Positions 30,888 through 49,220 of a DNA stretch of 64,000 nt are shown here, piece by piece. The DNA lies in assembly GCA_963707025.1 (NCBI GenBank), contig CAVPOM010000005.1, forward strand, positions 160,001-224,000, written 5' to 3'. Every line of letters starts with the position of its first letter. Within the stretch, counting starts at the first letter, position 1. The notes below the pieces were generated by a model that was not told where the DNA came from, ran no database searches, and was given only the letters and a program-made list of their open reading frames with translations. The position numbers were made by a program, and so were the translations under genes. Source of the stretch: an uncultured Verrucomicrobiae bacterium (GTDB lineage: Bacteria > Verrucomicrobiota > Verrucomicrobiia > Limisphaerales > Palsa-1400).

Positions 30888-32021
30888 TCAGCCTGACGCA
30901 CCGCCCTGGCGCGCCTGGACGAGCGCGCGAAAGCGGTGGCCGAGGTGCTCGGGATGGGTCAGGGTTTGAAATTGCCGAACCCGCGCGGGGGTCCATTCCT
31001 CAAAACCCGCCCCGTCCGCCAGGCTGCGCTGAAAGATTTCCGTCAGGAATTTGGCTTGCCGGACCACGCCCTCCGTGCGCAATCCGGCCGCCTCCCCCGC
31101 TTGCCGAAGGACAGAGAAATTGACGTGCGCGGTGATGTCCTGCTCGCCGGGGTTGGCCAGGATGTTCCCGGAAATTTGTTGCCCGGCGAAGGCGCGCAGG
31201 GTTCCGCGGGCGCGCCCGGGGTCGAGCCATTCCTCCCCGTCCAGCCCGTAGTCCAGCGTCAGGAGCTTGCCGCAATCCAGGCTGGCCGCGGCGCGCCTCC
31301 ACCATTGCGTGGCCGCCGGGGAAAGCTCGATGACAAATCCGTCGGGCAACACCGATTCCACTGCGGCGGGAAGGTCCGGCAGACAGGCCGCCGCTTCCCT
31401 TGACATCGGCCCCTTTTGCCAGACGAAGCCGTTCCCGCCGCAATTCACCCGCCATTCCAGCCACTTTTTCCCGGCGGTGTCCCGGCACAAACGATGCACC
31501 GGCATGGCGTCGAGCAATTCGTTGGAAAAAATGACGCCGCGCACCCGGCGCGCACCCGGTTGGCCAAAGTCGCCCGCCCATTGCACGTTGGCGAATTCGT
31601 TCCCCAGTTTTTCCTCCTGCCAGGCGCGGCGGACGGGCGACGGCTCGATCAGCCGGTATTCCAGGCGCGCGAAAATATCCGGGCGGCGCCGGCGCAACCA
31701 GCGCAAAACATCCAGCGCCAGCCGGCCGTCGTGAGCGCCCGCTTCCACAATTTGCCATTGGGCGGGCGGGGGTGGCGGCGGGATTTTCTCCAGCCATCGG
31801 GCGAATTGCCACGCCAGCAATTGGCCAAAGACCGGGCCGACGCTGACGCTGGTGAAAAAATCGCCGCGCCGGCCAATTTCCCGCGGCCGTTCGTAATAAC
31901 CGCAACCCGGCGCATAGAGCGCCCATTCCATGAAGCGGGCGAACGAGACCGGCCCGCTCCGGGCGATCTCCTCCCGAAGGTCACAGCCGGGTGGCGGCAT
32001 TTCACTTTTCCGGGAGTCCAT
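30888..32021 (-). CDS. SAM-dependent methyltransferase, MidA/NDUFAF7 family
   Basis: FMEWALY...GDFFTS, EAGAHDG, SNELLDA, PGEQDITAHV. Confidence 0.92.
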   Translation of the reverse strand: MDSRKSEMPPPGCDLREEIARSGPVSFARFMEWALYAPGCGYYERPREIGRRGDFFTSVSVGPVFGQLLAWQFARWLEKIPPPPPPAQWQIVEAGAHDGRLALDVLRWLRRRRPDIFARLEYRLIEPSPVRRAWQEEKLGNEFANVQWAGDFGQPGARRVRGVIFSNELLDAMPVHRLCRDTAGKKWLEWRVNCGGNGFVWQKGPMSREAAACLPDLPAAVESVLPDGFVIELSPAATQWWRRAAASLDCGKLLTLDYGLDGEEWLDPGRARGTLRAFAGQQISGNILANPGEQDITAHVNFSVLRQAGEAAGLRTEGVVRQAKFLTEIFQRSLADGAGFEEWTPARVRQFQTLTHPEHLGHRFRALVQARQGGASG

Positions 32022-32206
32022 TCCTGCTCTGCATCGTAATCGCCATCCCAGTCTTAATCCATCTTTCTCAGCATCGCCGCGGTCGGGCCGGCGGAGGGCA
32101 AGCCGCCAGCCATTTTCCCGGCGGGCGAATTCGTCGGCTTTGGCTTGCAGTTTCCAGGCGATTTGGTAAAAGGTCTCCAGCCGGTTGGAAACCTGAAGAA
32201 ACCTAT

Positions 32207-33301
32207 ATGGCCCAAATTGACGCGTTATTCAATTTAATGTTCAGCGAGAAAGCCTCGGACTTGCACCTGTCGTCCGGCAACCCGCCCATCCTGCGCATCA
32301 ACGGCGAACTGACGCGGGTGGATTCCCCCCCGCTGCAGGACGAGCAGCTCAAGGTCATGCTCTACGAAATCGCCCCGGAGTACAAAATCAAAACCTTCGA
32401 GGAAACCGGCGACGTTGATTTTGGCTACGAAATCAGCGGCGTCTCCCGTTTTCGCGCCAACTTTTTCACCCAGAAAAACGGCATCGCCGCCGTCTTCCGC
32501 CAGATCCCCACCACGGTGCTCTCGTTCGAGGACTTTGAAAAAGTGGGGGCGCCCTTCCCGCCTGTCTTGAAAAAGTTCGCCATGCTGCACAAGGGGCTGG
32601 TGGTCGTCACCGGTCCGACCGGCTCGGGCAAATCCACCACCCTGGCCGCCATCGTGGATTACGCCAACAAAAACCGCCGCGATCATATCATCACCGTCGA
32701 GGACCCCATCGAATTTGTCCACAGCAGCATTAGCTGCCTGATCAACCACCGCGAAGTCGGCGTCCACACCAAGTCCTTCGCCACCGCCCTGCGCGGGGCC
32801 TTGCGCGAGGACCCGGACATCATCCTGGTGGGGGAATTGCGCGACCTGGAAACCATTGAACTGGCCCTGACCGCCGCCAGCACCGGCCACCTGGTCTTCA
32901 GCACCTTGCACACCCAAAGCGCGGCCAAGACGGTGGACCGGATCATTGACGTCTTTCCCGCTGAACAGCAGAACAAAATCCGCGCCACCCTTTCCGAATC
33001 GCTCAAAGGGGTCATCGCCCAGAACCTGTTCAAGCGCGTGGACAAAAAGGGCCGGGTCGCCGCCCTGGAGATCCTGGTCTTCAACACCGCCGTGGCCAAC
33101 ATGGTGCGCGAAGGCAAGACCCACCAGATCCCAGGCATGATCCAGGTCGGCAAGAAATACGGCAACACGCCCCTGGACGATTCCATCATGGACCATCTGA
33201 AAATGAAGCGCATTTCCCCGGAGGAAGCTTACGAAAAATGCCTCGACCGGAAAAAATTCCGCGCCTTTCTGACCAATCCGCCGGACGAGGACGAGATGTA
33301 A
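32207..33301 (+). CDS. pilT: Type IV pilus retraction ATPase PilT
   Basis: ASDLHLS, GPTGSGKST, EDPIE, LREDPDIILVGELRD, TGHLVFSTLHT. Confidence 0.92.
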   Translation: MAQIDALFNLMFSEKASDLHLSSGNPPILRINGELTRVDSPPLQDEQLKVMLYEIAPEYKIKTFEETGDVDFGYEISGVSRFRANFFTQKNGIAAVFRQIPTTVLSFEDFEKVGAPFPPVLKKFAMLHKGLVVVTGPTGSGKSTTLAAIVDYANKNRRDHIITVEDPIEFVHSSISCLINHREVGVHTKSFATALRGALREDPDIILVGELRDLETIELALTAASTGHLVFSTLHTQSAAKTVDRIIDVFPAEQQNKIRATLSESLKGVIAQNLFKRVDKKGRVAALEILVFNTAVANMVREGKTHQIPGMIQVGKKYGNTPLDDSIMDHLKMKRISPEEAYEKCLDRKKFRAFLTNPPDEDEM

Positions 33302-33363
33302 CCGGGCGCAAGGCCCGCAGAGAGTTTGCCTTTTCAACCTTTTTGGCTTTAATTGACCTGAAT

Positions 33364-34593
33364 ATGCGCCGCAGCGAACTGGATTACATATTGGCGATGA
33401 TGCTCGGGCTGGACCGGCAGACCGAAACGGTCATCCGCCGCCGCCGGGATGTGTCGGACCTGAACTTCACGGTGGACAAGCCCTTGCAAATCGAGCAGTC
33501 CGGCGAATTGATCCCGGTCAGCTTTTATCCCCCCATCGAGAAATTGACGCCCTATCAAACGGAAATGATCGCCTTGAATTTGATCAACGGCAACCCGCGC
33601 CTGACCGAGGATTTGATCCGCAGCGGCTCCTGTGACTCCGCCTACAGCCTGGGCAACGAGGCGCGTTTCCGCGTCAACATCTTCTCCCAGCGCGGCAAGT
33701 TCTCCATCGCCCTGCGCAAGCTCAACACCACCATCCCCACCCTGGAGCAGCTCAAAATGCCGGCCCTGTTTACCGACGTGGCCAAGGAAAAAACCGGCCT
33801 GATCCTGGTGACCGGCGCGACCGGCTCGGGCAAATCCACCACCCTGGCGGCGCTGCTCAACGAAATCAACGAAACCAAATCCATCCACGTCATCACCCTG
33901 GAAGACCCGGTGGAATTTGTTCATCCCCAGAAAAAATCCACCTTCAACCAGCGCGAAATGGGCAGCGATTTCAGCACCTTTGCCACCGGCCTGCGCGCCG
34001 CCCTGCGCCAGGCTCCCAAGGTCGTCCTGGTCGGCGAAATGCGCGACCGCGAAACGGTGGAAATCGGCCTCAGCGCGGCCGAAACCGGCCACCTGGTCAT
34101 GAGCACCCTCCACACCATTGACGCCGGCCAGACCATCAACCGCGTGCTCGGCATGTTCGAGACCGAGGAGCAGGAGCAGGTCCGCGTCCGCCTCTCCGAC
34201 ATTTTGCGCTGGATCATCAGCCAGCGTCTGGCTCCCAAAATCGGCGGCGGCCGCTTCGCCCTGGTCGAAATCATGGGGGCCAACCTGCGCACCAAGGACA
34301 CCATCATTCACGGCGAAAGCGAGGGCAAGAGCTTCTACGAAATCATCGAAGCCAGCCACACCTTCGGCTGGCGCAATTTTGACCAGGCCTGCCTGGAAGC
34401 CTACGAACAAAACATCATCTCCGAGGAAAGCGCCCTTCTTTACTGCACCAAACGCGGCGTCGTCTCCCGCAACATTGACAAGATCAAGAAAGCCCGCGGC
34501 GAATCCGGCAGCCTGTCCGACCTGCAAATGCGGCGCGAGTCGTCCACCGCGCACAAAGCCGCCGGCCCGCCCCCCCCACCACGTTCAAATTAA
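33364..34593 (+). CDS. Second PilT/PilU-family ATPase
   Basis: GATGSGKST, LRQAPKVVLVGEMRD, TGHLVMSTLHT. Confidence 0.9.
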   Translation: MRRSELDYILAMMLGLDRQTETVIRRRRDVSDLNFTVDKPLQIEQSGELIPVSFYPPIEKLTPYQTEMIALNLINGNPRLTEDLIRSGSCDSAYSLGNEARFRVNIFSQRGKFSIALRKLNTTIPTLEQLKMPALFTDVAKEKTGLILVTGATGSGKSTTLAALLNEINETKSIHVITLEDPVEFVHPQKKSTFNQREMGSDFSTFATGLRAALRQAPKVVLVGEMRDRETVEIGLSAAETGHLVMSTLHTIDAGQTINRVLGMFETEEQEQVRVRLSDILRWIISQRLAPKIGGGRFALVEIMGANLRTKDTIIHGESEGKSFYEIIEASHTFGWRNFDQACLEAYEQNIISEESALLYCTKRGVVSRNIDKIKKARGESGSLSDLQMRRESSTAHKAAGPPPPPRSN

Positions 34594-35258: not shown

Positions 35259-35849
35259 ATGGCAACTACAGCTACAGTGGAGCGTCCGGTTGCGAAACTC
35301 CAGGACGCCGAAGTGCGGTTCGTGAGGAATATCCGTTCCGCTTTGCGGCAGGGCGCCGAGGAGGCGGATCCCGTGACCGCGGCTCCCCAGAATCTCATCC
35401 GATTGACCGAAATTGCATTTTGTCAGGAATTCCCCGCCGCCAAGGCTGATAATCGCCTGATCAGTGCCATGGCCCGAGGAATCACCGTGCGCCGAAAGCT
35501 CAGGGAAGCAGAAGGGGGGAGCCTGTCAGCGGAAGAGGCGGCTCGAGAATTGGGCATTTCCAAGGCCGCCATTTTAAAGCGGTATCACAAGGGCCGGATC
35601 ATTGCCTGGCGCGAAGAACGGCAGAACGCAGCGCGATTTCCGGTTTGGCAATTCCAAGACGGCAAAGTTTTGAAAGGCCTGGAGGAGGTTCTCCAAATTC
35701 TCAATGCGGGCAGCCGGTTGGATGATTTCGGCCGGATGCTCTTTTTCCTTTCGAACATGGGCTTCCTTGGGAAGAAACGACCCGTGGACTGCTTGCGGGC
35801 GGGAGAGGTGAACAAGGTTTTGCAAGCGGCCCAGGGGCATGGCGGGTAA
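35259..35849 (+). CDS. Antitoxin (HTH + Xre/MbcA/ParS-like C-terminus)
   Basis: LSAEEAARELGISKAAI, FPVWQF, LGKKRPVDCL; overlaps the RES gene. Confidence 0.75.
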   Translation: MATTATVERPVAKLQDAEVRFVRNIRSALRQGAEEADPVTAAPQNLIRLTEIAFCQEFPAAKADNRLISAMARGITVRRKLREAEGGSLSAEEAARELGISKAAILKRYHKGRIIAWREERQNAARFPVWQFQDGKVLKGLEEVLQILNAGSRLDDFGRMLFFLSNMGFLGKKRPVDCLRAGEVNKVLQAAQGHGG

Positions 35850-36447
35850 TCCATCTCCCCGCCGCGTCAGACTGCCACCGGCGGACCTGGGAACGCAAAA
35901 GCTTCCCGGCACCCGGCAGATCGCTCGAGCTTGGTTCAGGGTGCATCCCCGTTCGTACCGCGCGATTTTCTTCAACCTCAAACCGACGCATCGTTACTCG
36001 CATCCCCATTGCCCATTTCCGATTCTATACGTTGCCATTGATCCGGAAACCTGTCTCTGGGAAGCCTTTGGCGACGCCGTTTTCGATGACGGACACGCCT
36101 TGCCGAAAACCCAGTGGGATGATTTGGTGGCATCAACGATTCATGTGCCGGATCTCCATCTTTGCGATCTGTCCAAAACAACCACGCGCGGCGCCCTGGC
36201 CGTTGACCTGACAGCACTGATGAACGAGGACCTTGGTGTCCCCCAACAATGGGGCCTGGCGATTCAGATGCACCCCTCACAAGTGCCGGCCATCAAATTC
36301 AAGAGCCGATTTACTGGCCGCGCCTGTCTGGCGATTTTCGACCGCGGAGGAATCCGCCGGCATCTCCGGGAAACCTCCCTGGGCTCATTAAGCCAGTTTG
36401 ACCCAGCCTTGGCCTGGCTCACCAAACACCAAGTGACGTTGGCATAA
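35839..36447 (+). CDS. RES-domain toxin
   Basis: WFRVH, RY...ILYVA...CLWE, IKFKSR. Confidence 0.8.
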   Translation: MAGNPSPRRVRLPPADLGTQKLPGTRQIARAWFRVHPRSYRAIFFNLKPTHRYSHPHCPFPILYVAIDPETCLWEAFGDAVFDDGHALPKTQWDDLVASTIHVPDLHLCDLSKTTTRGALAVDLTALMNEDLGVPQQWGLAIQMHPSQVPAIKFKSRFTGRACLAIFDRGGIRRHLRETSLGSLSQFDPALAWLTKHQVTLA

Positions 36448-36503
36448 CCGACATGAGCGCTGCCCCGCCCCCGGCGCGCCCAGGGTTGACAACCCGTCTC
36501 ATC

Positions 36504-36527
36504 TATACTATCCATATGGATAGTATA
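36504..36527. promoter_or_regulatory. Perfect 24-bp palindrome, candidate LexA operator
   Basis: TATACTATCCAT|ATGGATAGTATA; ends on the A of the lexA ATG; TTGACA at 36486-36491. Confidence 0.75.
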
Positions 36528-37150
36528 TGAAAGAACTGACCCCAGCCCAGCAACGGGTGCTGGATTTCATCCAAACTGAAGTCCAGGCCTGCCGACCCGC
36601 CCCCACCCTCCGCGAGATGGCCCGCCATTTTCGCTTCCGCAGCCATCGCGCGGCGGCCTGCCACTTGCAGGCGCTGCGGCGCAAGGGCTTCCTCCAGTCC
36701 GAACCCGGCAAAGCCCGCTCCCTGCGCCTGACTTCCCCGCTGGCCAAACTCCGCCGCCGCATCCTGGACATCCCCCTCTTCGGCTCCATCCCCGCCTGCT
36801 GGGCGCAAAGCCGCGAGCAGGAGGCCGAAGGCTGCGTTTCCGTGGACATCCAGAGTATCGGCTTCCTCCCCGCCCGCAACGCTTTCGCCCTGCGTGTCGC
36901 CGGCGATTCCATGATCGGCCGGCACATCTGCGACGGCGACATCGTCCTGCTCGAACACGGCCCGGAACCGCGTCCGGGGCAAATCGTGGCGGCGCTGATT
37001 GACCGCAAAAGCACGCTCAAGACCTTCCTGGTCAAAAACGGCAAACCCTTTCTCAAGGCGGAAAACCCAAAATATCCCGACCTCATTCCGTCCGACGAAC
37101 TGATGATCCAGGGCGTCTTCCGCGCCCTCCTGCGCAAGGCGCGCGAATGA
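36527..37150 (+). CDS. lexA: LexA repressor
   Basis: LTPAQQRVLDFI...PTLREMA winged HTH; GDSM (Ser) and STLK (Lys) peptidase residues. Confidence 0.93.
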   Translation: MKELTPAQQRVLDFIQTEVQACRPAPTLREMARHFRFRSHRAAACHLQALRRKGFLQSEPGKARSLRLTSPLAKLRRRILDIPLFGSIPACWAQSREQEAEGCVSVDIQSIGFLPARNAFALRVAGDSMIGRHICDGDIVLLEHGPEPRPGQIVAALIDRKSTLKTFLVKNGKPFLKAENPKYPDLIPSDELMIQGVFRALLRKARE

Positions 37151-37153
37151 ATT

Positions 37154-40100
37154 ATGCGGACCATTGTTCATCTGGATGCGGATGCGTTTTTCGCCGCGGT
37201 CGAACAGGCGTCCGACCCGAAGTTGCGCGGCCAGCCAGTCGCCGTGGGCGGCGAGAAACGCGGCATCATTGCCTCCGCCTCGTATGAGGCGCGAAAATTC
37301 GGCGTCTCTACGCCGATGCCGACGGCGCGGGCGCGCAAACTCTGCCCAAAGCTGATCGTTCTCCCCGGCGATTTTGAGCGTTACGAGCAGTTCAGCCACT
37401 GGATGTTCGGCTACTGCTACGATTTCACGCCGGAGGTGGAACAAACTTCCATTGATGAAGGCTACTTCGATTTGTCCTGCGTTCGGAAATCGCCGGTGGA
37501 AATCGCGCTGGCCATCCGCCAGGCCATCGGCCAAAAGCTTAAAATTACGGTGAGTGAAGGGATCGGCGCCAACAAACTCGTCAGCGCCATCGCCTCCAAG
37601 CTGACCAAGCCCGCCGCCTTCCACGAAGTTCCCCCCGGCGGCGAGGCGGCGTTTCTTCATCCCTTGCCCAACCAATGGTTGCCGGGCATCGGTCCGCAAA
37701 CCAGCGCGCGCCTCAACGCCGCCGGCCTGGCCCAAATCCGCCATATCGCCGCCACCCCGCTGGAAATGCTCGGACTTCTTCTCGGCAATCAGTCCGCGGC
37801 CATCCGGCAATTCGCGCGCGGGATTGACGAGCGCCCGCTGGTTCCCCTGCGCGAACCGCAAAAATCCTTCAGCCAGCAGGAAACTTTCCCGGCGGACGTG
37901 ACGGACGAGGAATACATCCAGGCCGCCTTGCGGCGCATGGCCGACCACTTGTTTGCCAGGGTGCGCCAGGAAGGCCGCAGCATCCGCACGCTGACGGTCA
38001 AAGTCCGCTACAACGACATGGCGGAAGATCAGGTCAACGAAAGTCTGCGCGAGCCGACCGACTTGGAAACGGACGTTTATGGGCGCCTGGGCGCCATGCT
38101 CGGCTGCGCCTGGAAACGGCGCGTGAGTCTGCGCCTGGTGTCGCTCAAGCTGGCCAACGTCTATGACGGCCGCTTTCACGGCGAGCTGGCGCTGGAGGCA
38201 TCCGCCCAACGGCAAAACGCACAATCCCGCCTGGCGGCGGTGATTGACGAGTTGCGCCGGGCGCGGGGGCACACCGTCATCATGCGCGGGCATGACCTCC
38301 GGTTGAGAACCCCGCCCGCCGACACCGCCGCCAGCCTCACCCGGCAGGATTGGATCCCGCCCCGGCGGACGCTGGCGCCGGTGAAACGGGATGTCTGCGA
38401 TTACGTTCCACTCCGCGTTCACAGCCACTATTCATTTCTCGATGCCACACTCTCCCCTGTTGCCATCGTCCAACTGGCCAGGCGTCATGGCCTGCCTGCC
38501 GTCGCCCTGACCGACACGGGCAACCTGCACGGCGCGGTTGAGTTTGTGCAGGCAGCCAAGGAGGCCGGGGTGAAGCCAATTCTGGGCGCGGAACTGCGCC
38601 TGGGGGACCAGCCGCTGCTGCTTTACGTCGCGTCGGCGCGGGGCTGGCACAATCTCTGCCGGTTGCTCTCCAACCATGCCGGGCGGCACGGACCCGGGCG
38701 CCGACGAAGCCTCGGTCGCCAACCAGCAGCGTGGTCCCTTCTGGCGCGAAGAATTCAGCGGACTGACGGAAGGATTGATTGCCGTCAGCCAGGACGCGCG
38801 GTTGGCAGAAATGTTTCCGCGCCATTTCTACGGTCTGGCGGCATCCCGCGACACCCCCGGCCATTTTCCCATGGCGGCCTGCCCCTCCATCCACTGCGCC
38901 ACCCGCGATGACCGGCAGAAATACGACATCGTGCAAAGCATCCGCACGCGGACGCTCCTGCGCCACCCCCACCCGGACAAACGCAGCGGCGGCCGGCTTC
39001 ATTTCCGCGCTCCCGCTGAGATGATGATGGCGTGCCGGGATCATCCTGACTGGTTGCGTCACACCCAGGAGATCGCGGCGCGTTGCGACTTCGACCTCCC
39101 CTTCGGCCAGCCGCAATTTCCGGCGTTCGCAACGCCGGACGGCTCGCGGCCGGGGGAGTTTCTGCGGCGGCTCGTGCGGCAGGGGCTGCGCCGGCGTTAT
39201 GGCAGGCAGGCGGACAAATTCCAGCCGCAAGTGGCGGAGGAGCTCGGCATCATCAACGAGGTGGGTTACGAGGACTACTTCCTCATCACCTGGGATTTTC
39301 TGCAAGAGTGCCGCCGGCGCGGCCTGGAGTGGATCACGCGCGGCAGCGCGGCCGACAGCCTGGTTTGCTACTGCCTGGGCATTTCCGGCGTTTGCCCCAT
39401 CCGCTTCGATCTCTACTTCCGCCGTTTCCTCAACAAGGAGCGCATGGCCCTGCACAAACTGCCGGACATTGACATTGATTTTGCCCACGACCGCAAGGAC
39501 GACGCGGTGAAACTCCTCTTCGACAAATACGGCCGCGAACATTGCGCCGCCGTCGGCGGATTCTCCACCTTCCAGGCGCGCAGCGCCTTTGCCGAGGTGG
39601 CCAAGGTGCTGGGGGTGGCGGAACGCGAAGTCAGAAAGTTCACCGACCATTTCCCGTGGAGCTTTGGCGGCGGTTGGATCCCCGATGAACCCACCCCCGG
39701 CGGCGGGGCGGGTTTGGTGGAAATGCTGCGCGCCAGTCCTGAAAACCGCGATCTGCCCTTCGACGAGGAACCCTACCGGACGGCCTTGCACATGGCCGAG
39801 TTTCTCGACGGCGTGCCGCGCTATCCGAAGATGCACCCGTGCGGCCTGGTGCTCTCGCGCCAGCCGATGCACGAGCTGACGCCGACCTTCGTCGCCCACA
39901 AGGGTTATGCCACAACCCACTTCGACATGGACGCGGTGGAGGCGGTGGGTTTGGTCAAGATGGATATTCTGGCGCAAGGGGGCCTGGCGGCGATGCGCGA
40001 CGTCAAGGCCATGCTGGAGCGCCGCGGCATCGCCGTGGATCTGGAGCGGTGTGTGGCGCGGCATAAATCCGACGGCCGTTTGCTGCGGGGCAACCCGCCA

Positions 40101-41509
40101 GCGCCGAGCCGTGGCAGGATGAAAATGTTTGGGAGATGATCGCCGGCGGCCAGGCCCGCGCCGTCCATCACATCGAATCCCCCGCCATGACCAGCCTCTG
40201 CCGCCAATGCAACGTGCGTGAGATTGACGGCCTCATTGCCATCGTCAGCGTCATCCGTCCCGGCGCGGCCAACCAAGGCAAGAAGCTGGCCTTCACGCGG
40301 CGTTATCAAGGACTGGAGCCGGTGGCGTATCCGCATCCGTCGCTGGAGCCGTGCTTGCGCAGCACTTATGGGCTGGTGGTTTACGAGGAACATATTCTCC
40401 AGTTGTGCGAGGCGTTCGCGGGTTTGCCGCCCGGCCGCGCCGACATTCTGCGCCGGGCCTTGAACAAACAGAAACGCGCCGTGATTGAGGAGATGCGCGG
40501 CGAGTTCTTCCAGGCGGCGCTGGCGCGCGGCCACACGCTGGAGAAGACCGCCGAAGTGTGGGCGCTGGCCACCGGCTTTGCCGGTTACGCTTTCTGCAAA
40601 GCCCACAGCACCGCCTATGGCGTGGAGGCGTATCAGTCCGCCTGGCTCAAGCGTTATTTTCCCGCCGAGTTCATGGCCGCCGTGCTGACCCAGGGCAAAG
40701 GCTTTTACCATCCGCTGGTCTATGTTCTGGAATGCCACCGGCTCGGTTTGAAGCTGCTGCCGCCGTCGGTCAATGAACCCGGACCAACCTTCGTGCCGCA
40801 CGGCAACTCCATCCGCGTGCCACTGACGCGAGTCAAGGGACTCACCGCGCGCACGGCCGATGCCATGCTGCAAGCTCGTGACCGCGGGCCGTTCGCCTCC
40901 CTGGCCGATTTCTTCCGCCGCGTCCTTCCGGCGGGCGAAGAACTGGAAGCGATGATTCGCGCCGGCGGCCTGGATGAATTCGGCGAAACCCGCACCCGCC
41001 AATTCTGGCAGGCGCGGCATCTGCTCAAAACCTTCGGGGCGGGCGTGACGCCGGAGCAGGGCTGGCTGGTTCCCCCGCCGGGACTGGAACAGCAGCCCGC
41101 CATCCCCCTCCAGGAGCCAACCCGCCTGCAACGTCTCCAATGGGAAACCGATCTCTTCGGTTTCGCCGTGAGCGGACATCCCCTGGAATTGTTTCCAGAC
41201 ATCGCCTGGGACACCTACTGTCCCGTCCGCCGCCTGGGCGAATTTATGGGTGACACCGTGACCGTCTGCGGGCTGGTGGTGGAGCAGCGCATCCATCACC
41301 AGATCACCGGCGAGCCGATGAAATTCCTGAGCCTGGCCGACTGGACCGGCATCGTCGAAACCGAACTTTTTGCCCAGACCTACCAAAGTCATGGCCTGGC
41401 GACCATCCGCCATCCCGTCCTGGAAATAGAAGCCCGGGTGGAACCCTTTGAAAACCAGCGCGGCTTCTCCCTGCGCGCCCTCCGCGCCGGCAAACCCCGC
41501 ACCCGGTAA
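37154..41509 (+). CDS. Fused DinB (Y-family) - PHP - DnaE (C-family) DNA polymerase, about 1450 aa; frameshifts near 38680 and 40100
   Basis: One frame runs from HLDADAFFAAVEQ / SYEAR / SIDEGY into YVPLRVHSHYSFL...ALTD; next frames give RGSAA, PDIDIDF, HPCG, KMDIL, GYAFCKAH and an OB fold. Confidence 0.88.
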
Positions 41510-41543
41510 ATTCCGACGGAGAAGTGGCGGGGGTAATGTCCCA

Positions 41544-41632
41544 GTCTTAATCCTAATCTTAATCCTAATCTCTTCTTGAGGCCATTTCTCATTGGTAATT
41601 GGGGATTAAGATTAGGATTAAGATTAAGATTA
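41544..41632. repeat. Inverted hexamer arrays (YTAATC)n ... (GATTAR)n
   Basis: TCTTAATCCTAATCTTAATCCTAATC and GATTAAGATTAGGATTAAGATTAAGATTA; related copies at 46691-46766/47771-47803 and 61640-61657. Confidence 0.85.
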
Positions 41633-41787
41633 CGAGCCGGATGAGAGACTGCCAGGGGAAGCGACAGCCTCAAGGCAGGAGCGACAACGAGATGGGTTTC
41701 TCCCGCGCTGATACCCGGGCGGCCAGCAAGTGTGGGGGGCGACTTGTTGGACGCCCACTCTTGCAGGCAGGGTGAGATGCGCCACAC

Positions 41788-42011: not shown

Positions 42012-42236
42012 TTAACCCCCTTTATGATCCCGGCAAAATACCAGAAACCGCTTGATCCATTGCAAATACGCCTGCTCCGTCCGCAGCGCCAGCCGGTGAA
42101 ACCGCATCACCTCCCGGCACTGCTCCATGAATTTGAGCTTGGGATTTGGCCTCAGCCTTTCCAGTGGCGCACTTGTCGCGCCGTAGCGCCGCGAAGGCGG
42201 CTGCAGCCTTTCGCCGGCGGGCGGTGGGATGTTCAT
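42012..42236 (-). pseudogene. intI: Integron integrase, N-terminal SAM-like domain only
   Basis: PKLKFMEQCREVMRFHRLALRTEQAYLQWIKRFLVF; divergent from the cassette array; stops after about 74 aa. Confidence 0.85.
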
Positions 42237-42252
42237 CCGGCAATAATTGCCC

Positions 42253-42281
42253 TTGACAGAGGCTGTTTTCAAGCATTTAAT
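42253..42281 (+). promoter_or_regulatory. Candidate cassette promoter Pc
   Basis: TTGACA-N17-TTTAAT pointing into the array. Confidence 0.7.
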
Positions 42282-42289
42282 GCAAAAAA

Positions 42290-42334
42290 TGAATCGAACT
42301 AGGCCGTGAAAATTCAATCGAAATACTGTTACGC
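42290..42334 (+). other. Putative attI site
   Basis: GTTACGC core at 42328-42334 directly before the first cassette ATG; AT-rich upstream. Confidence 0.6.
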
Positions 42335-42337
42335 AGC

Positions 42338-42631
42338 ATGAGCGCCCCGAACATATTCCTAAAGATTGGTGCGTGCCTTTGTGTTTTGATTGGCACGCTC
42401 TACGCTATATTGACCGCGCAGCTTGTCATTGACCGACCTTTCTTCAAAGGCGATGCACTCGTCATGATCATCATGACCATCTACGGATTGTTTGCGTTCG
42501 TCCCGTTCGTTGTGTTTGTCTATCCCAGATTCAAAGCACCACGAAAGCCGATTTTATTGAGTGCTGGTATTTTAGAGATTTTAGTCCCTGTCTTGTTTGT
42601 TTGGTTTTTCTTAGATGCTCTTACAGATTGA
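42338..42631 (+). CDS. Cassette 1: small membrane protein
   Basis: 97 aa, three hydrophobic segments, followed by attC. Confidence 0.75.
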   Translation: MSAPNIFLKIGACLCVLIGTLYAILTAQLVIDRPFFKGDALVMIIMTIYGLFAFVPFVVFVYPRFKAPRKPILLSAGILEILVPVLFVWFFLDALTD

Positions 42632-42643
42632 TTTTATGCTGCT

Positions 42644-42800
42644 GCCTAACACCGCGCTGGAGCCAACGCCGACTGCCCCTTCCACCTTCGCCAAGGCTAC
42701 GGTGGACAGGTGAGTTTATGAATGGTTTGAGTTATACAACGATTATCGAGTTTGCGGAGCCGCTCGCCGGTCGGCGTGGCTCAGCTTTGGATCGTTAGGC
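42644..42800 (+). other. attC (long type, 157 bp)
   Basis: GCCTAAC...GAGCCAACGCCGAC...GTCGGCGTGGCTCAG...GTTAGGC. Confidence 0.9.
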
Positions 42801-42821
42801 CACTTACACATCACACAAATT

Positions 42822-43094
42822 ATGAGCACCAAATACACCAAATGGTTCGAGCAGACAGCAGCCGACCCGACACGTCGCCGTGCTGCCATTTCTGATTATT
42901 CCAAGCGGCGCACCGTTCTCATTTGTTGCGCTTTGGTTATTACTGGCTGCGCGGCTGCCACATATTTCCCGACACCGCACAGTCTCAAAGGCACAGCAGC
43001 ACTTACTTTTGCGGCAGCTATGTCGTGGATTTCATGCGCCAGAGTTGGTTCCGATCTTCGGACGCTCAAGCTACTCGACAGATTTTTACCATGA
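42822..43094 (+). CDS. Cassette 2: hypothetical membrane protein
   Basis: 90-aa ORF filling the space between attC sites. Confidence 0.7.
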   Translation: MSTKYTKWFEQTAADPTRRRAAISDYSKRRTVLICCALVITGCAAATYFPTPHSLKGTAALTFAAAMSWISCARVGSDLRTLKLLDRFLP

Positions 43095-43116
43095 TTGATT
43101 TGACAGATAGCCAGTG

Positions 43117-43218
43117 GCCTAACAAGTCGCCGGAGCCAACCGCCGTTGGCGCTTTTGTTTCCCGACCAGTCGGGATTCACGTCACGAGTCGGCGGTGGCT
43201 CAGCTTTTTTCGTTAGGC
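43117..43218 (+). other. attC (102 bp)
   Basis: GCCTAAC...GAGCCAACCGCCG...CGGCGGTGGCTCAG...GTTAGGC. Confidence 0.92.
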
Positions 43219-43270
43219 GGCAAGGCACACCATAAACAAACAACACAAAACGAAGAATGCTACAAAGCCT

Positions 43271-43750
43271 ATGAAGAAGAACTTTAAGACAATTCAACTT
43301 GGACTTTGCTCCGTTTTAGCGGCGGCACTCACGGGTTGCGCCAGTTCTAGAGACTACAGTCACGTTTCCAGTCAATTTCCTCAAATCCCCGCCGGGGAAC
43401 GCCGAATTGTCTTCTACCGTGGAAACGAACTTTCTGGCGGCGGTCAATGGCATACGATTTGGTTGAATGATGCCATGATTGGCTACCTTTCATCGGGTTC
43501 GTTTTTTTATGAAGATCGTCCGGCGGGCGACTACGGCATCTCTGGCCGAGCAAAAGGTTTTTTGCATATTACACTTGAAGAAAAACCACTGGTTATATCA
43601 CTAAAAGCCAATGAGACCAAATATATCCGTTTCACACAAACAAGTGGCTTGGGAAGCATCAGGATCATTCCGACGCCTGAGGATAGTGATTCTGCGATGA
43701 AGCTTTTGCCAAAATGCTTATACAACGAAGGCAGATATCGTCTTTTTTAG
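43271..43750 (+). CDS. Cassette 3: DUF2846-like lipoprotein
   Basis: LTGC lipobox, RIVFYR, IGYLSSGSFFY.D.PAG.Y. Confidence 0.8.
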   Translation: MKKNFKTIQLGLCSVLAAALTGCASSRDYSHVSSQFPQIPAGERRIVFYRGNELSGGGQWHTIWLNDAMIGYLSSGSFFYEDRPAGDYGISGRAKGFLHITLEEKPLVISLKANETKYIRFTQTSGLGSIRIIPTPEDSDSAMKLLPKCLYNEGRYRLF

Positions 43751-43765
43751 TTATGGAATGTTGCC

Positions 43766-43867
43766 GCCTAACAAGTCGCAGGAGCCAACCGCCGTTGGCG
43801 CTTTTGTTTCCCGACCAGTCGGGATTCACGCCGCGAGTCGGTGGTGGCTCAGCTTTCTACGTTAGAC
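43766..43867 (+). other. attC (102 bp)
   Basis: GCCTAAC...GTTAGAC, same family as 43117. Confidence 0.92.
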
Positions 43868-43889
43868 ATCACTGCGCACCTCAGAATTT

Positions 43890-44309
43890 ATGTCACTCGA
43901 ACTACACATCTTCATTCAGGACTCGCAGGTTCCGAGCCGTGATGCTTGGCAGCAAGCGATTGGGGAGGCAGGCTTTCCTACGGTCCTTGAGCCGACGCTT
44001 GACCTTCGGCGAGACACCGGATTCAGACCAACGAGCTACTAAGACCAAGCCACGGGATATGAGTTTTACCTGGAGCCGGCAGCGGGAATCCTTGAGGCTT
44101 ACCCGCACATCACCGAGCAGGTTGGCAGCCGTGATATGTGCGCGACATTTCGCTGGGGCGGCGACCTTGTTGAGTGTGCCGCAGCTATTTCGTCAGCCGC
44201 AGCACTTACGAAGCTTGCAGATGGTATTTATTTTTATCCAGACGATGACATCATTCGCACCGCCGATGATGTTGTTGAGGCGACGCGCGAGGAGTTGGCC
44301 TCGATATGA
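43890..44309 (+). pseudogene. Cassette 4: hypothetical protein with in-frame TAA at 44040
   Basis: MSLELHIF...RPTSY*DQATGYEFY...ELASI; cassette bounded by complementary GTTAGAC/GTCTAAC. Confidence 0.75.
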
Positions 44310-44316
44310 CCGTGAT

Positions 44317-44415
44317 GTCTAACAAATCGCTGCAGGAAACGCGGGATGGCCGGTCCAGTTCCGCTTCGCGGTTCACGGTTTTTGGTCCGGCGTGGCTCAG
44401 CTTTTTTCGTTAGGC
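44317..44415 (+). other. attC (99 bp)
   Basis: GTCTAAC...GTTAGGC. Confidence 0.85.
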
Positions 44416-44426
44416 ATCATCACGCT

Positions 44427-44726
44427 ATGATTGCATTTGAGGTTTACATAAACGGACAGAAGCGATTCACAGCAGGCGGTGATTATCCGACTCTTACCAC
44501 CGCTCTGACGCTTATCCATAGACAGTTACCCAAGCCTAACGACGCCACCATCCTGTTTTCTACGACCGGCATAAAGCCAGACGAGATGGTGACAGTTGGT
44601 TCGTGGCCTAGCGAAGATTTGACCGTTGGCAACCGAGTTGAGATTCGTATTGTTGAGGTTTCTGAAGTTGACGCACCAGAATCTGTTGATAAGCATAAGC
44701 GAGCAGATGACAATGTTGATGCCTAA
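44427..44726 (+). CDS. Cassette 5: hypothetical protein
   Basis: MIAFEVYING...; stop codon lies inside the attC inverse core. Confidence 0.75.
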   Translation: MIAFEVYINGQKRFTAGGDYPTLTTALTLIHRQLPKPNDATILFSTTGIKPDEMVTVGSWPSEDLTVGNRVEIRIVEVSEVDAPESVDKHKRADDNVDA

Positions 44727-44819
44727 CAAGTCGCCGGAGCCAACCGCCGTTGGCGCTGTCAGTTCCGCTGTCGCGGTTCACGTCGCGAGTCGGCGGTGGC
44801 TCAGCTTTTTTCGTTAGGC
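44721..44819 (+). other. attC (99 bp)
   Basis: GCCTAAC...GTTAGGC. Confidence 0.92.
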
Positions 44820-44848
44820 AGCAAGGCACCACACCATAAAATGAGCCT

Positions 44849-45124
44849 ATGAAAACCAGTGACATCCAGAAGCCAGACGCGACGAAGCAGATTATTCTTT
44901 CAGCCTTCGCGGTGATTTTCTTTTGCTTCATCTTACCATTTTGCAGCTTGCCGATGCGTTCAGCCGGCGGAGCCATTTTGTTCACGGTTTATTTTTGGCT
45001 TTTCTCAGGCAGCTTACGCAGCCGCAGCGGTTCACTGACGCCAGCGTATTTTTTGGCGGCGTTCATCTGGCTTTGCGCGATAGTAGTCGGCGTTCTGTGT
45101 TTTCTAGGCGCTGTCGAGTTATGA
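44849..45124 (+). CDS. Cassette 6: small membrane protein
   Basis: 91 aa, three hydrophobic segments. Confidence 0.7.
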   Translation: MKTSDIQKPDATKQIILSAFAVIFFCFILPFCSLPMRSAGGAILFTVYFWLFSGSLRSRSGSLTPAYFLAAFIWLCAIVVGVLCFLGAVEL

Positions 45125-45133
45125 CGACTTGCT

Positions 45134-45290
45134 GCCTAACACCGCGCTGGAGCCAACGCCGACTGCCCCTTCCACCTTCGCCAAGGCTACGGTGGACAGG
45201 TGAGTTTATGGATGGTTTGAGTTATACAACGATTATCGAGCTTGCGGAGCCACTCCCCGGTCGGCGTGGCTCAGCTTTGGATCGTTAGGC
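45134..45290 (+). other. attC (long type, 157 bp)
   Basis: Near-identical to 42644-42800. Confidence 0.9.
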
Positions 45291-45334
45291 ATCATTTCAC
45301 CACAAACATAAACGTCAACAAATGGAGATTGAAT

Positions 45335-45628
45335 ATGAAACTGAACATTAGGGCATTCGCGCTGACATGCGGCACACTCTGGGCGCTGGGGCTGTTTTCT
45401 CTGACTTGGTGGCTCATCGCATTCGGTGGTTCCACCGGAGAACTCACATTCATCGGCAAGGTGTATCTTGGTTACACAGTTTCGCCGTTTGGCAGCGTGA
45501 TTGGATTGGTATATGCGTTCTTCGATGCTTTGATTGGCGGTGCGATTTTTGCGTGGCTCTACAACAAGATGGCATCTTGTAACAAGATGACGGGTTGCGG
45601 TGAGGATAAGAAGCCGACCCAGCCATGA
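45335..45628 (+). CDS. Cassette 7: small membrane protein of a putative-holin-like family
   Basis: MKLNIRAFALTCG.LW...YLGYTVSPFGSVIGL...D...GAIFAWLYN. Confidence 0.7.
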   Translation: MKLNIRAFALTCGTLWALGLFSLTWWLIAFGGSTGELTFIGKVYLGYTVSPFGSVIGLVYAFFDALIGGAIFAWLYNKMASCNKMTGCGEDKKPTQP

Positions 45629-45629
45629 T

Positions 45630-45786
45630 GCCTAACACCGCGCTGGAGCCAACGCCGACTGCCCCTTCCACCTTCGCCAAGGCTACGGCGGACAGGTGAG
45701 TTTATGGACGGTTTGAGTTATACAACGATTATCGAGTTTGCGGAGCCACTGGCCCGTCGGCGTGGCTCAGCTTTGGATCGTTAGGT
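45630..45786 (+). other. attC (long type, 157 bp)
   Basis: Third copy; ends GTTAGGT. Confidence 0.9.
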
Positions 45787-45879
45787 GCTTTGACATTATG
45801 AACATTATTCGCACCAGGATTATTGCCTTCTGGCTGTCGTTTTTGCTTTTCTGTTTTTTGCTCTGGATTTCCTGTGGCA

Positions 45880-46529: not shown

Positions 46530-46766
46530 CAGTTAAGGTTCTTCTTGCTTTGGGGTACGGGGAGAAGAACATTAACTGAGGCAGGGGTCCCGGCAGGCCG
46601 GACTGCCCTCCCTACCAACCGTGACCGGACGCATCGGCGTCAAGCGCACACCCGGTAAATCCAGGAGAAGCGCCAGGGGTCATGTCCCAGTCTTAATCCC
46701 AATCTTAATCCTAATCCTAATCTCTTCTTGACGCCATTTCTCATTTTACGAAAGAGATTAAGATTA

Positions 46767-47770
46767 GAGCGTTTCCATAAATGATATAGCTTGACTGGGG
46801 CGAGAGGGCTGGCAGGCTTGAGCCATGCGAGCGATACCCGTGTCTGCGCGCGAGCGCATCCTGCAACTCTATGAACAAGGCAAAAGCACCCGCGAGATCG
46901 CGGACTTTTTCGGCTTTTGCGTGGCGGCGGTGCGCCGGGTCCGGCAGCAGTTCCAAGAGCGCGGCACGCTCCAGCCGCAAACCCATTTGTGCGGGCGCAA
47001 AACGCTGCTGAACGCCGGACGCCAGGCTCGCCTGCAAAAGCTGGTGGCGGCCCAGCCCGACGCGACGTTGGCCGAGTTGGGGGCGCGTCTGGACCGCCCT
47101 TTCGGGACCTCCACTGTGGATTTGTGGCTGCGCAAACTGGGGTTGAGCTATAAAAAAAACGCTCTGCGCCGCCGAGCAGAACCGTCCGGACGTGGCCGAA
47201 AAGCGGGCCCATTGGCATGAGCGTCTGGCAAGTGACCCACCTGCCCGACTGGTCTTCGTGGATGAAAGCGGGGCCAACACCAAGATGACCCGTTTTTGCG
47301 GGCGGTCACCCGTGGGCCGAAGACTGGCGGCCCACGTCCCGCAGGGACATTATCAGACCACCACCCTGGTCTGCGCCATTCGTCTGGCCGGGCCTGCGGC
47401 CCCCTGCCTCTTTGAGGGGGCCATGGACGGGGAAATGTTTTTGGCCTGGATCCAGCAGGGGCTGGTGGTGGAGTTGCGCAAGGGTGACTTGGTCATCATG
47501 GACAACTTGGCCACGCATAAGGTGACCGGAGTCCGCCAAGCCATCGAAGAGGCCGGGGCAACGCTGCTGTATCTGCCGCCCTATTCGCCAGACTTTAATC
47601 CCATCGAAAATATGTGGAGCAAGGTCAAACAAATTATGCGAGGTCTCGCGCCGCGAACCGCCAAGGAACTGCTCCAAGCGGCGAAGATTGCCTTTGAAGC
47701 CATCTCCACCGCCGATTGCCGGGGCTTCTTTTTAAACGCCCGCTACGCTACATGATTTATGGAAATGCTC
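46767..47770 (+). mobile_element. IS630-family insertion sequence
   Basis: TIRs GAGCGTTTCCATAAATGATATAG / CTACATGATTTATGGAAATGCTC; TA duplication at both ends. Confidence 0.95.
46825..47755 (+). CDS. IS630 transposase, two ORFs joined by a frameshift at the A8 run near 47152
   Basis: HTH ORF plus FVDESG / MDNL / PDFNPIE DDE ORF. Confidence 0.92.
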
Positions 47771-47830
47771 TAAGATTAGGATTAAGATTAAGAATTAGAT
47801 TAGGTCACTGGCGGGCGGGTGGAGATGGTC

Positions 47831-49220
47831 TCAAGGCGGGAGCGACAGCGAGATGGGCTTTTCCCGCGGCGGAGTCGCGCCGGCGCGCGCGGCGCGGATA
47901 TTTGCCTCCAAATCCATCAGGCTGAGGCGGCGCTGCGCGGAGAAGGCATGGGTGCTTTGCGGATAGCGGCGGACCAGCCGTTCCATGGTTTCGCGGCCTT
48001 TCTGCAGGTCGCCCTGATACTTGATCTGCCAGGCCGCCATCAAGGCCAGCCACTCGGCGGCCTGAGCGGCGGAGGCCTCCGGCATGTTCAAAAGCAGTTC
48101 CATCTGCTCGAGGGCCGCGCCCACCTGGTCCAGGCGTTCGGCCAAAATCCGGGCCAGTTCTTCCCGCACCGCCATGTTGTCGGGGTTGGTTTGGAGCTGT
48201 TGCACGCAGTCGTTGGCCCGGGCGGCCGCTTCTTTCCGCTCGGCGGGCGAGGCGGGCAGGCGGGCGGCATGATCCAGGTGCCGGCCCAGCACGGGGAGCC
48301 GGAATGATTTGGGGGTTCGCCGGGCGATGACTTCTTCCCGGCTGGCGGGCAGTTGCTGGATGCGCCGCCGGGCCATCCGGCCCATGTGGGTGTCGGGGAA
48401 ACGCCGGCAAATCTCTTCCAGGGCATCCCGCGCCGCCACCGGGTCGTTGGCCAGTTGCAAGTGCCAGTCGGCCAATTGATTGAAGGCCACGCAAACCTCG
48501 GAGGGGTTGGCCGTCTCCTGCGCGCAGGTGTCGCGGATGATCCGGTCCGCCCCGGCCAGATCGCCGAAGTGATTGGCGTAAAGCCCGGCCAGCATCAGCC
48601 AGCCGGTGAAATCATCCTCCGATTTATCCAATTCCTCGAGCACGGCCGCTTCGGCTTCCTTGTACTTGTCACCGTGCATTTTGACCACGGCGCGGTGATA
48701 GGCCGGCCCGGTTTTCTCACGAAAAGCCAGCGGAATAACCCGTTGCACCATGGGCCACAGCCAGACCACCCCGGCCACGCCCGCGGCGGTCGCGCCATAA
48801 CCCCAGAGGATCAGGGCGGCCAGCGGCACCAGGAAAAAGGACATGCCCAGCACGATGTGTTTGAATTGCCCGGGGTCCGCCGCCTGCCGCCCCAGCGCCG
48901 CCAACAACCATCCCAAAGTGGCGGCCGCCCAATAAGAACTGATGATGAAGAAGCCGGTCCCCGCCACCGCGACGTAGGCCTGCAGCGTGGCCAGACCGGG
49001 CGGTGCCGCCTGAATTTGCAGGAGCAGCGGTGGAAAGTTCTCCGACAGCCCGGCATTGCAGATCAGCCAGATCATGACCGGCGCGGCCAATCCCTTGATG
49101 GCCCAGAGGCGGAGCCAGCGGCGCAGCTCCGCCGCCTGCGCATTGGGCAGCCGCCCCCACAAATTGGAAGCCGGCATCCAAACACCGGCGGCGAGCACGA
49201 TGACGCCAAGCAAAACCATC
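47831..49220 (-). CDS. Membrane protein with C-terminal TPR-like region
   Basis: About 5 TMs followed by helical repeats; start uncertain. Confidence 0.75.

Follow-up and report, generated by a model that had tools for sequence, protein, structure and literature searches.

A LexA-led gene of Verrucomicrobiota that joins an active-type Y-family polymerase to DnaE2 in one chain, a likely fused form of the DnaE2B-PolY-RecA module

Introduction

An ImuA-less system made up of a Y-family polymerase (PolY), DnaE2B and RecA has been described in Bacteroidetes, where the two apparently active polymerases are encoded by separate genes, and the DnaE2B-PolY-RecA module itself is a computational prediction (PMC6511836; PMC12926913). 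Here we analyse a stretch of 64,000 nucleotides (nt) from an uncultured Verrucomicrobiae bacterium (GTDB lineage Bacteria; Verrucomicrobiota; Verrucomicrobiia; Limisphaerales; Palsa-1400; GenBank assembly GCA_963707025.1, contig CAVPOM010000005.1, positions 160,001 to 224,000 of the forward strand; hereinafter the window), in which lexA is followed by a single gene joining a Y-family polymerase half to a DnaE2 half (37154..41509). An original prediction, made from this DNA alone, had called it a one-gene mutasome and set it against the canonical lexA-imuA-imuB-dnaE2 cassette. Judged from sequence, it is a fused form of the DnaE2B-PolY-RecA module.

Results

A single chain with two polymerases

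The PolY-DnaE2 fusion gene (37154..41509, plus strand, ~1451 codons) begins 3 nt past the lexA stop codon, and its opening frame runs for 585 codons without a stop, holding the Pfam domains IMS (amino acids (aa) 7-149), IMS_C (aa 237-336) and PHP (aa 420-509). Two 1-bp indels break the window copy: the motifs DADAFF, SIDE, HSHYS and LTD lie on frame one, PDIDID and KMDIL on frame two, and the finger and HhH regions on frame three. The frame from the Y-family domain into PHP, its position behind lexA, the junction upstream of the first frameshift and the retention of PDIDID and KMDIL (on the next frame) were all foreseen by the original prediction and all hold. The ~1450-aa polypeptide that it proposed, with the active-site residues of both polymerases intact, is supported too, and in the closest relative, L001 (91% identical), the gene is read as one 1450-aa chain of IMS, IMS_C, PHP, DNA_pol3_alpha, finger and HHH_6.

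The genome of the window is 88% complete, which bounds every genome-wide absence reported here. It holds a separate replicative DnaE (1242-codon frame), solo DinB genes and one recA. The predicted absence of imuA agrees with our searches: profile NF033429 and four ImuA queries match recA only, DUF6504 (ImuB-C) was not found, and ImuA and ImuB-C queries have no match at any of 80 related loci. Neither the locus nor the genome thus yields ImuA, ImuB or ImuB-C.

The fusion is conserved across many Verrucomicrobiota

Scanning species genomes turned up 114 relatives, of which 80 loci were kept. A single frame of at least 1380 aa covers the match in 58 of the 80, 10 run off their contig, and the remaining 12 are shorter (65, 149, 356, 513, 533, 544, 668, 692, 914, 1060, 1306 and 1365 aa), one of these merely lacking its start; in none of the 80 does the frame end inside the linker. 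Among 250 other genomes of the order, each at least 90% complete, the junction region is matched in 107, at least 92 of them in a frame of at least 1340 aa. In a protein search restricted to lengths of 798-2540 aa (2560 hits among 8000 candidates), IMS_C, PHP and DNA_pol3_alpha occur together in 120 of the 120 matches listed, which is the domain-architecture check that the original prediction had proposed. A second search with a distant member as query gave 267 hits, and the 120 matches listed include proteins of Prosthecobacter fluviatilis, P. vanneervenii, P. fusiformis, Chthoniobacteraceae, Methylacidiphilales and Puniceicoccaceae.

Fused genes persist in many families of a single order and occur in further orders as well, down to ~55% identity, and the possibility that homologues are always separate genes is contradicted by the 58 fused loci, the halves being split only in two relatives, G034 and G035. 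The named fused records are all from Verrucomicrobiota or from doubtfully labelled bins among them, within searches that did not cover other phyla exhaustively. A phylum-wide scan gave 5 of 300 genomes at E 1e-150 with at most two candidates scored per genome, a figure that is not a prevalence, and no fused form is present among the 60 and 30 best plasmid rows listed. A chimeric assembly of two genes is ruled out, the junction being kept in hundreds of independent records.

Some genomes carry two or three full-length copies (G012, G428, G450 and G461). One 1524-aa protein (P0102) combines LexA domains with IMS_C, PHP and DnaE and has no IMS; it is a single sequence and may be a deletion or an artefact.

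Both active sites are retained and the PHP domain is degenerate

We aligned 165 full-length sequences (58 loci and 107 database proteins, partly redundant) and a second group of 103 fused sequences. The Y-family half (palm, fingers, thumb and little finger; 37154..38161, plus strand; IMS and IMS_C) keeps its catalytic acids almost without exception: D8 (at 37175) in 161/165, with 4 gaps, and 100/103, and D101 and E102 (37454-37459) each in 164/165 and 102/103. Together with an aromatic steric gate (F13), these residues give it the make-up of an active-type Y-family polymerase, and it matches NF002677 with 264 bits against a cut-off of 256. In the C-family polymerase core (39159..39974, plus strand; PF07733), the aspartates D771 (at 39465), D773 (39471) and D937 (39963) are present in every sequence of both groups (165/165 and 103/103), and the PHP-Pol3-finger-HhH order is that of a C-family DnaE. 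The finger, HhH and OB-like C-terminal part (40136..41509, plus strand; domain search and alignment) contains a QGWL motif (41057-41071) that may be a clamp motif, and sequence and alignment reveal neither an SRDF tail nor a C-terminal tau-binding extension.

This conservation supports, with fair assurance, catalytic activity at both polymerase sites. The Y half could instead be an ImuB-like adaptor that supplies clamp and RecA binding and leaves all mutagenic synthesis to the DnaE half, as in ImuA-ImuB-DnaE2 and iPolY-DnaE2B-RecA. Such a role has been published for ImuB (PMC6511836), and the closest plasmid-borne cassette, the lexA-DUF72-polY-dnaE of Desulfosarcina, has a PolY without acidic motifs. 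However, adaptors lose the very residues (D8, D101, E102 and the steric gate) that are near-invariant in the 268 fused sequences, and few stretches of the protein are as well conserved as the palm. We consider an adaptor highly improbable.

The PHP domain (38399..39110, plus strand) was aligned to E. coli DnaE. Its metal ligands 1-5 are retained (H, H, D, H, E), but ligand 6 is P and ligand 8 is S or A, at the positions of E. coli H83 and D201, and the loss is greater still in the second group. The ligand set described for proofreading PHP domains, HHDHEH[C/H]DH (PMC12926913), is therefore absent, and the DnaE half is likely to lack proofreading. The predicted motifs HSHYS and LTD do exist; they account for the first ligands only, so that an intact proofreading PHP domain does not follow from them.

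A conserved motif before the linker is predicted to bind RecA

Past the little finger the chain runs through an ELxL motif, a helix-strand motif and a variable linker, in that order. The ELxL motif (38177..38191, plus strand; E in 154/165, the first L in 165/165, the last in 148/165) may bind the beta clamp, which we presume from its resemblance to known clamp-binding motifs. The helix-strand motif (38210..38311, plus strand; residues 353-386) is RecA-NT-like, with ten near-invariant positions (L, A, D, L, R, G, R, G, H and D, each in 158-165 of 165 sequences) ending in RGHD. When residues 236-392 of L001 were folded with the RecA of the window's genome, the complex scored 0.80 compared with 0.06 for the best of three controls, passing a mark that 51 of 78 solved complexes attain, as do 2 of 108 mismatched pairs. 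The predicted interface lies on residues 353-386, the runs share at least 88% of contacts, and the partner has a predicted local distance difference test score (pLDDT) of at least 86. The fusion thus has both the conserved motif and the predicted interface that mark the DnaE2B-PolY-RecA module, and its protein probably binds RecA through this motif.

The idea of a one-gene mutasome as a self-contained unit is not sustained, because the linker region keeps a motif with predicted affinity for RecA, which probably stands in for ImuA. The linker between the two polymerases (38327..38395, plus strand) is the least conserved stretch, has a median length of 40 aa (range 32-165 in 152 sequences) and is predicted to be disordered (pLDDT <50). 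Residues 1-1190 of L001, modelled by AlphaFold2 from an alignment (pLDDT 83, predicted template modelling score (pTM) 0.65), contain both polymerase folds; a single-sequence model (pLDDT 35) was set aside as unusable.

The DnaE half groups with DnaE2B

In a 34-row DnaE tree (quick LG+G4 inference, with composition warnings and DnaE2X absent), the DnaE half is placed together with the Desulfosarcina cassette and three DnaEs linked to dinB in Bacteroidetes (Shimodaira-Hasegawa-like approximate likelihood ratio test (SH-aLRT) 98), apart from five ImuA-linked DnaE2A (SH-aLRT 100) and from two replicative enzymes. The DnaE2B references are plasmid-borne Bacteroidetes dinB-dnaE pairs labelled by their description in the paper, and membership in DnaE2B holds within the limits of this tree. 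The canonical lexA-imuA-imuB-dnaE2 cassette was hence the wrong comparison, as the DnaE half sides with the Bacteroidetes-type DnaE2B and not with DnaE2A. Set against the Bacteroidetes PolY2 group, the PolY half forms its own clade, with only 32% identity to three Bacteroidetes PolYs.

In the two split relatives, G035 and G034, polY and dnaE2 are adjacent separate genes with an ATGA stop-start overlap, and PolY is motif-intact; in G034 the stop is followed by a scaffold gap. Both the DnaE and the PolY tree place G035 among the fused forms and G034 outside them. The module's arrangement of PolY and DnaE2B as separate subunits is thus seen only in these two, the other forms being one chain.

The window copy is probably intact in the cell

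Frameshift 1 (38685..38687, plus strand) is one extra base that is absent from 4/4 aligned relatives, and frameshift 2 (40103..40106, plus strand) is the loss of one base that is present in 4/4. They are the only internal gaps between the window and L001 (+1 at ~38685-38687 and -1 at ~40103). The extra base near 38686 is also lacking in relatives' contigs from three public runs. Near-identical short contigs (X1) leave 38686 uncovered, and the alignment of one of them opens at 40104 with three letters clipped, which carries too little weight to be used.

We aligned 209 kb to a congener (G003) and polarised frameshift events by third-position substitution bias, which assigned 20 frameshifts to the window's genome (116 genes, 158 kb) and 0 to the congener (117 genes, 151 kb). 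A single gene accounts for six of the 20, so errors cluster in this assembly. The mean rate predicts ~0.55 indels per 4.36 kb and a probability of two or more of ~0.11, higher with clustering. It might be argued from these last figures, and from the 12 of 80 related loci that stop short of full length (one merely without a start), that the window copy is a young pseudogene with real frameshifts, in which case the family-level fusion would stand. But the excess of frameshifts over the congener points to the assembly, and the gene bears no mark of decay: read in the relative's frame, it has 0 stops over 1446 codons, and its lineage-specific replacement:silent ratio (48:112) is not above that of the intact relative (37:67). 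We consider a pseudogene very unlikely and hold with good confidence that both indels are assembly errors and that the gene is intact in the cell. The indels anticipated near 38680 and 40100 therefore exist as two 1-bp differences from relatives; the dead locus that they might have signalled does not follow.

lexA and its operator

The lexA gene (36527..37150, plus strand, 207 aa; Pfam LexA_DNA_bind and Peptidase_S24, TIGR00498 over cut-off) is the only copy found in the genome, and lexA is present in 73 of the 80 related loci. Abutting its start codon, a perfect 24-bp palindrome (36504-36527) contains the likely LexA operator ACTATCC-N4-GGATAGT (36507..36524, not assigned to a strand). Palindromes with 6/7 or 7/7 pairing occur in 60 of 69 lexA upstream regions compared with ~3 in shuffles. 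A TTGACA at 36486..36491 (plus strand) is the likely -35 element of the lexA-fusion operon by sequence and conservation, TTGAC preceding the palindrome in 60/60 loci that have it. A 17-bp spacer from TTGACA would set the -10 element within the left arm of the operator; a consensus promoter scan did not call the lexA-fusion promoter. TATACT at 36504 was dropped as a -10 box, lying just 12 bp from TTGACA and likewise not called by the scan. In 53/60 loci 0-2 nt separate the palindrome from the aligned start codon, which suggests that the lexA transcript is near-leaderless.

With lexA in the lead and a palindromic box over its promoter, the fusion operon has the layout of a LexA-controlled SOS operon, and LexA very probably controls it. 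The box occurs once in the genome and is absent from the 120 nt read at recA, and one lexA was found, so this LexA likely serves the fusion operon alone.

The operator half-site has 27 variants among 59 loci, and these vary with the recognition helix (helix 3) of LexA: A4 accompanies R41 in 58/59, G5 accompanies E44 in 58/58 and T2 accompanies F/Y45 in 58/59. On the best tree each operator or helix trait changes 4-12 times, with only 1-2 independent pairs on well-supported branches; a sign test is not significant after phylogeny, and the pairs were chosen after seeing the mutual-information table. We regard the covariation as a lead, not a result. Three loci carry TGTTC-N4-GAACA, which we take to be the published Verrucomicrobia box.

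A DUF72 gene adjoins the cassette in 19 of the 80 loci, mostly directly upstream of lexA (e.g. L002:3232-4200), and also adjoins the Desulfosarcina cassette; that of the window's genome lies on another contig. A GIY-YIG nuclease gene stands beside the fusion gene in 7/80 loci (e.g. L020:10215-11081).

Neighbouring elements

Upstream of lexA, an overlapping gene pair (35259-36447), the last a RES-domain gene, is common only to L001, which has ~1 kb more between this pair and lexA; the first gene has several paralogues in the genome, and the pair is likely a bacterial toxin-antitoxin system. Farther upstream, tandem PilT/PilU-like ATPase genes of the T2SSE family (31991-34593) are ordinary. An AT-rich inverted-repeat element of TTAATC/CTAATC units lies just downstream of the fusion gene (41518-41740) and again at 46664-46790 and 47747-47868; the genome has ~10 copies, and an IS630-like transposase pair (46825-47755) interrupts one of them. 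Region 42012-45790 holds a minus-strand integrase N-terminal fragment (Phage_int_SAM_4) followed by short open reading frames between 115-161 nt repeats, some ending in GTTAGRC. It is probably a cassette array of the integron type whose integrase is truncated.

Discussion

We slightly favour a picture in which an active Y-family polymerase tethered to a non-proofreading DnaE2B-type polymerase forms a damage-induced, RecA-gated lesion-bypass enzyme. The dedicated LexA would sit on the palindrome over the promoter, and after DNA damage RecA-stimulated self-cleavage of LexA would, in line with established SOS biology, release lexA and the fusion gene together. The fusion protein would then engage a RecA protomer by the RecA-NT-like motif, contact the sliding clamp by either or both of its clamp-like motifs, hold both active sites at one stalled primer end and, again as in established SOS biology, carry out error-prone synthesis. 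Conceivably the Y half inserts opposite the lesion and the DnaE half extends, an order that we put forward as tentative. A bolder version, which we think unlikely, has the two sites pass one primer end in cis under a RecA switch, governed by a private LexA. Its recognition helix and operator would have changed in concert on many occasions, yielding a natural residue-to-base code (R41-A4, E44-G5, F/Y45-T2).

Several observations weigh against this picture. The RecA-NT motif imitates the RecA-RecA filament contact (PMC6511836), so the high RecA score may reflect likeness to solved RecA-RecA filament structures; an hhalign comparison of the motif with RecA 26-52 falls in the right register and is not significant (probability 0.3, E 0.2). 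The packing of the two halves is unsupported by the model, given its pTM of 0.65, the disordered linker and the poorly modelled first 100 PolY residues. DnaE2X is not represented in the DnaE tree, and fused copies without a nearby lexA exist (G204). A single clade of fused forms is rejected (approximately unbiased test, p 0.0096; the group was named after seeing the tree), and since split forms persist, one of them nested among the fused ones, the covalent link appears dispensable.

Given this rejection and the positions of G034 and G035, the fusion likely arose from a translationally coupled polY-dnaE2 pair and was followed by at least one fission or second fusion. Such a history would also suit a mere packaging event, in which a coupled pair lost its stop codon and gained 1:1 amounts and co-regulation, the two polymerases serving different lesions or gaps with no hand-off. 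The ATGA overlap of the split relatives, the fission or repeated fusion implied by the scattered fused forms and the variable, predicted disordered linker are all compatible with packaging. Against it stand the persistence of the fused state across many families and other orders to ~55% identity, the matching trees of both halves and a linker length centred tightly on 40 aa in the main group, and we judge packaging rather unlikely. The RecA-gated lesion-bypass enzyme remains our preferred reading.

Until now, the case for a DnaE2B-PolY-RecA module has rested solely on gene neighbourhood and modelling, and a fusion that occurs widely in nature adds independent genetic evidence that the two polymerases act as a unit. 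It reduces a three-part assembly to a single protein whose sites can be silenced one at a time, in cis or in trans, making the two-polymerase (insert, then extend) model of lesion bypass directly testable in bacteria, and it is present in cultured, harmless Prosthecobacter species. It also implies that a presumably inducible and mutagenic polymerase, labelled DnaE or Pol IV in databases, is present in much of an abundant order of Verrucomicrobiota. The series of natural operators can readily be used to test LexA specificity.

Comparison with known systems

LexA2 of Pseudomonas and Xanthomonas is a second LexA with a box only before its own mutagenesis operon. The LexA of the fusion locus resembles it in that respect but is the only one found in its genome, and its box differs between lineages. 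The ImuA-ImuB-DnaE2A mutasome shares with our locus a lexA-led cassette, a Y-family fold followed by DnaE2, a degenerate PHP domain and a RecA-NT-like motif. Its ImuB, however, is catalytically dead and carries ImuB-C, ImuA is needed, and DnaE2A is a separate clade that often has an SRDF tail; none of the dead ImuB with ImuB-C, an imuA gene or DnaE2A affiliation is found at the fusion locus. The Desulfosarcina ovata plasmid cassette, which we place by inference in the iPolY-DnaE2B-RecA group (gbDinB2/scDinB2 type), is the best plasmid match to the DnaE half (32.5%) and has lexA and DUF72 as neighbours, but its polymerases are separate genes and its PolY lacks catalytic motifs.

A PolY-DnaE fusion is not mentioned in the parts of PMC6511836 and PMC12926913 available to us; by term search, the genome list of the latter includes nine Verrucomicrobia and no Limisphaera or Pedosphaera, its DnaE2 supplement rows lying outside our scope. 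Full-text literature searches returned no description either, with Erill 2016 and Erill 2006 outside their scope and a prior mention there possible. The fusion is apparently undescribed, as a variant of the DnaE2B-PolY-RecA module and not as a new kind of system. As described, the Bacteroidetes module has an active-looking PolY with a RecA-NT motif beside DnaE2B, no ImuA or ImuB-C and an adjoining SOS-type regulator, and its DnaE falls on the same side of our tree; the Verrucomicrobiota form differs in being one polypeptide under a canonical LexA with its own operator.

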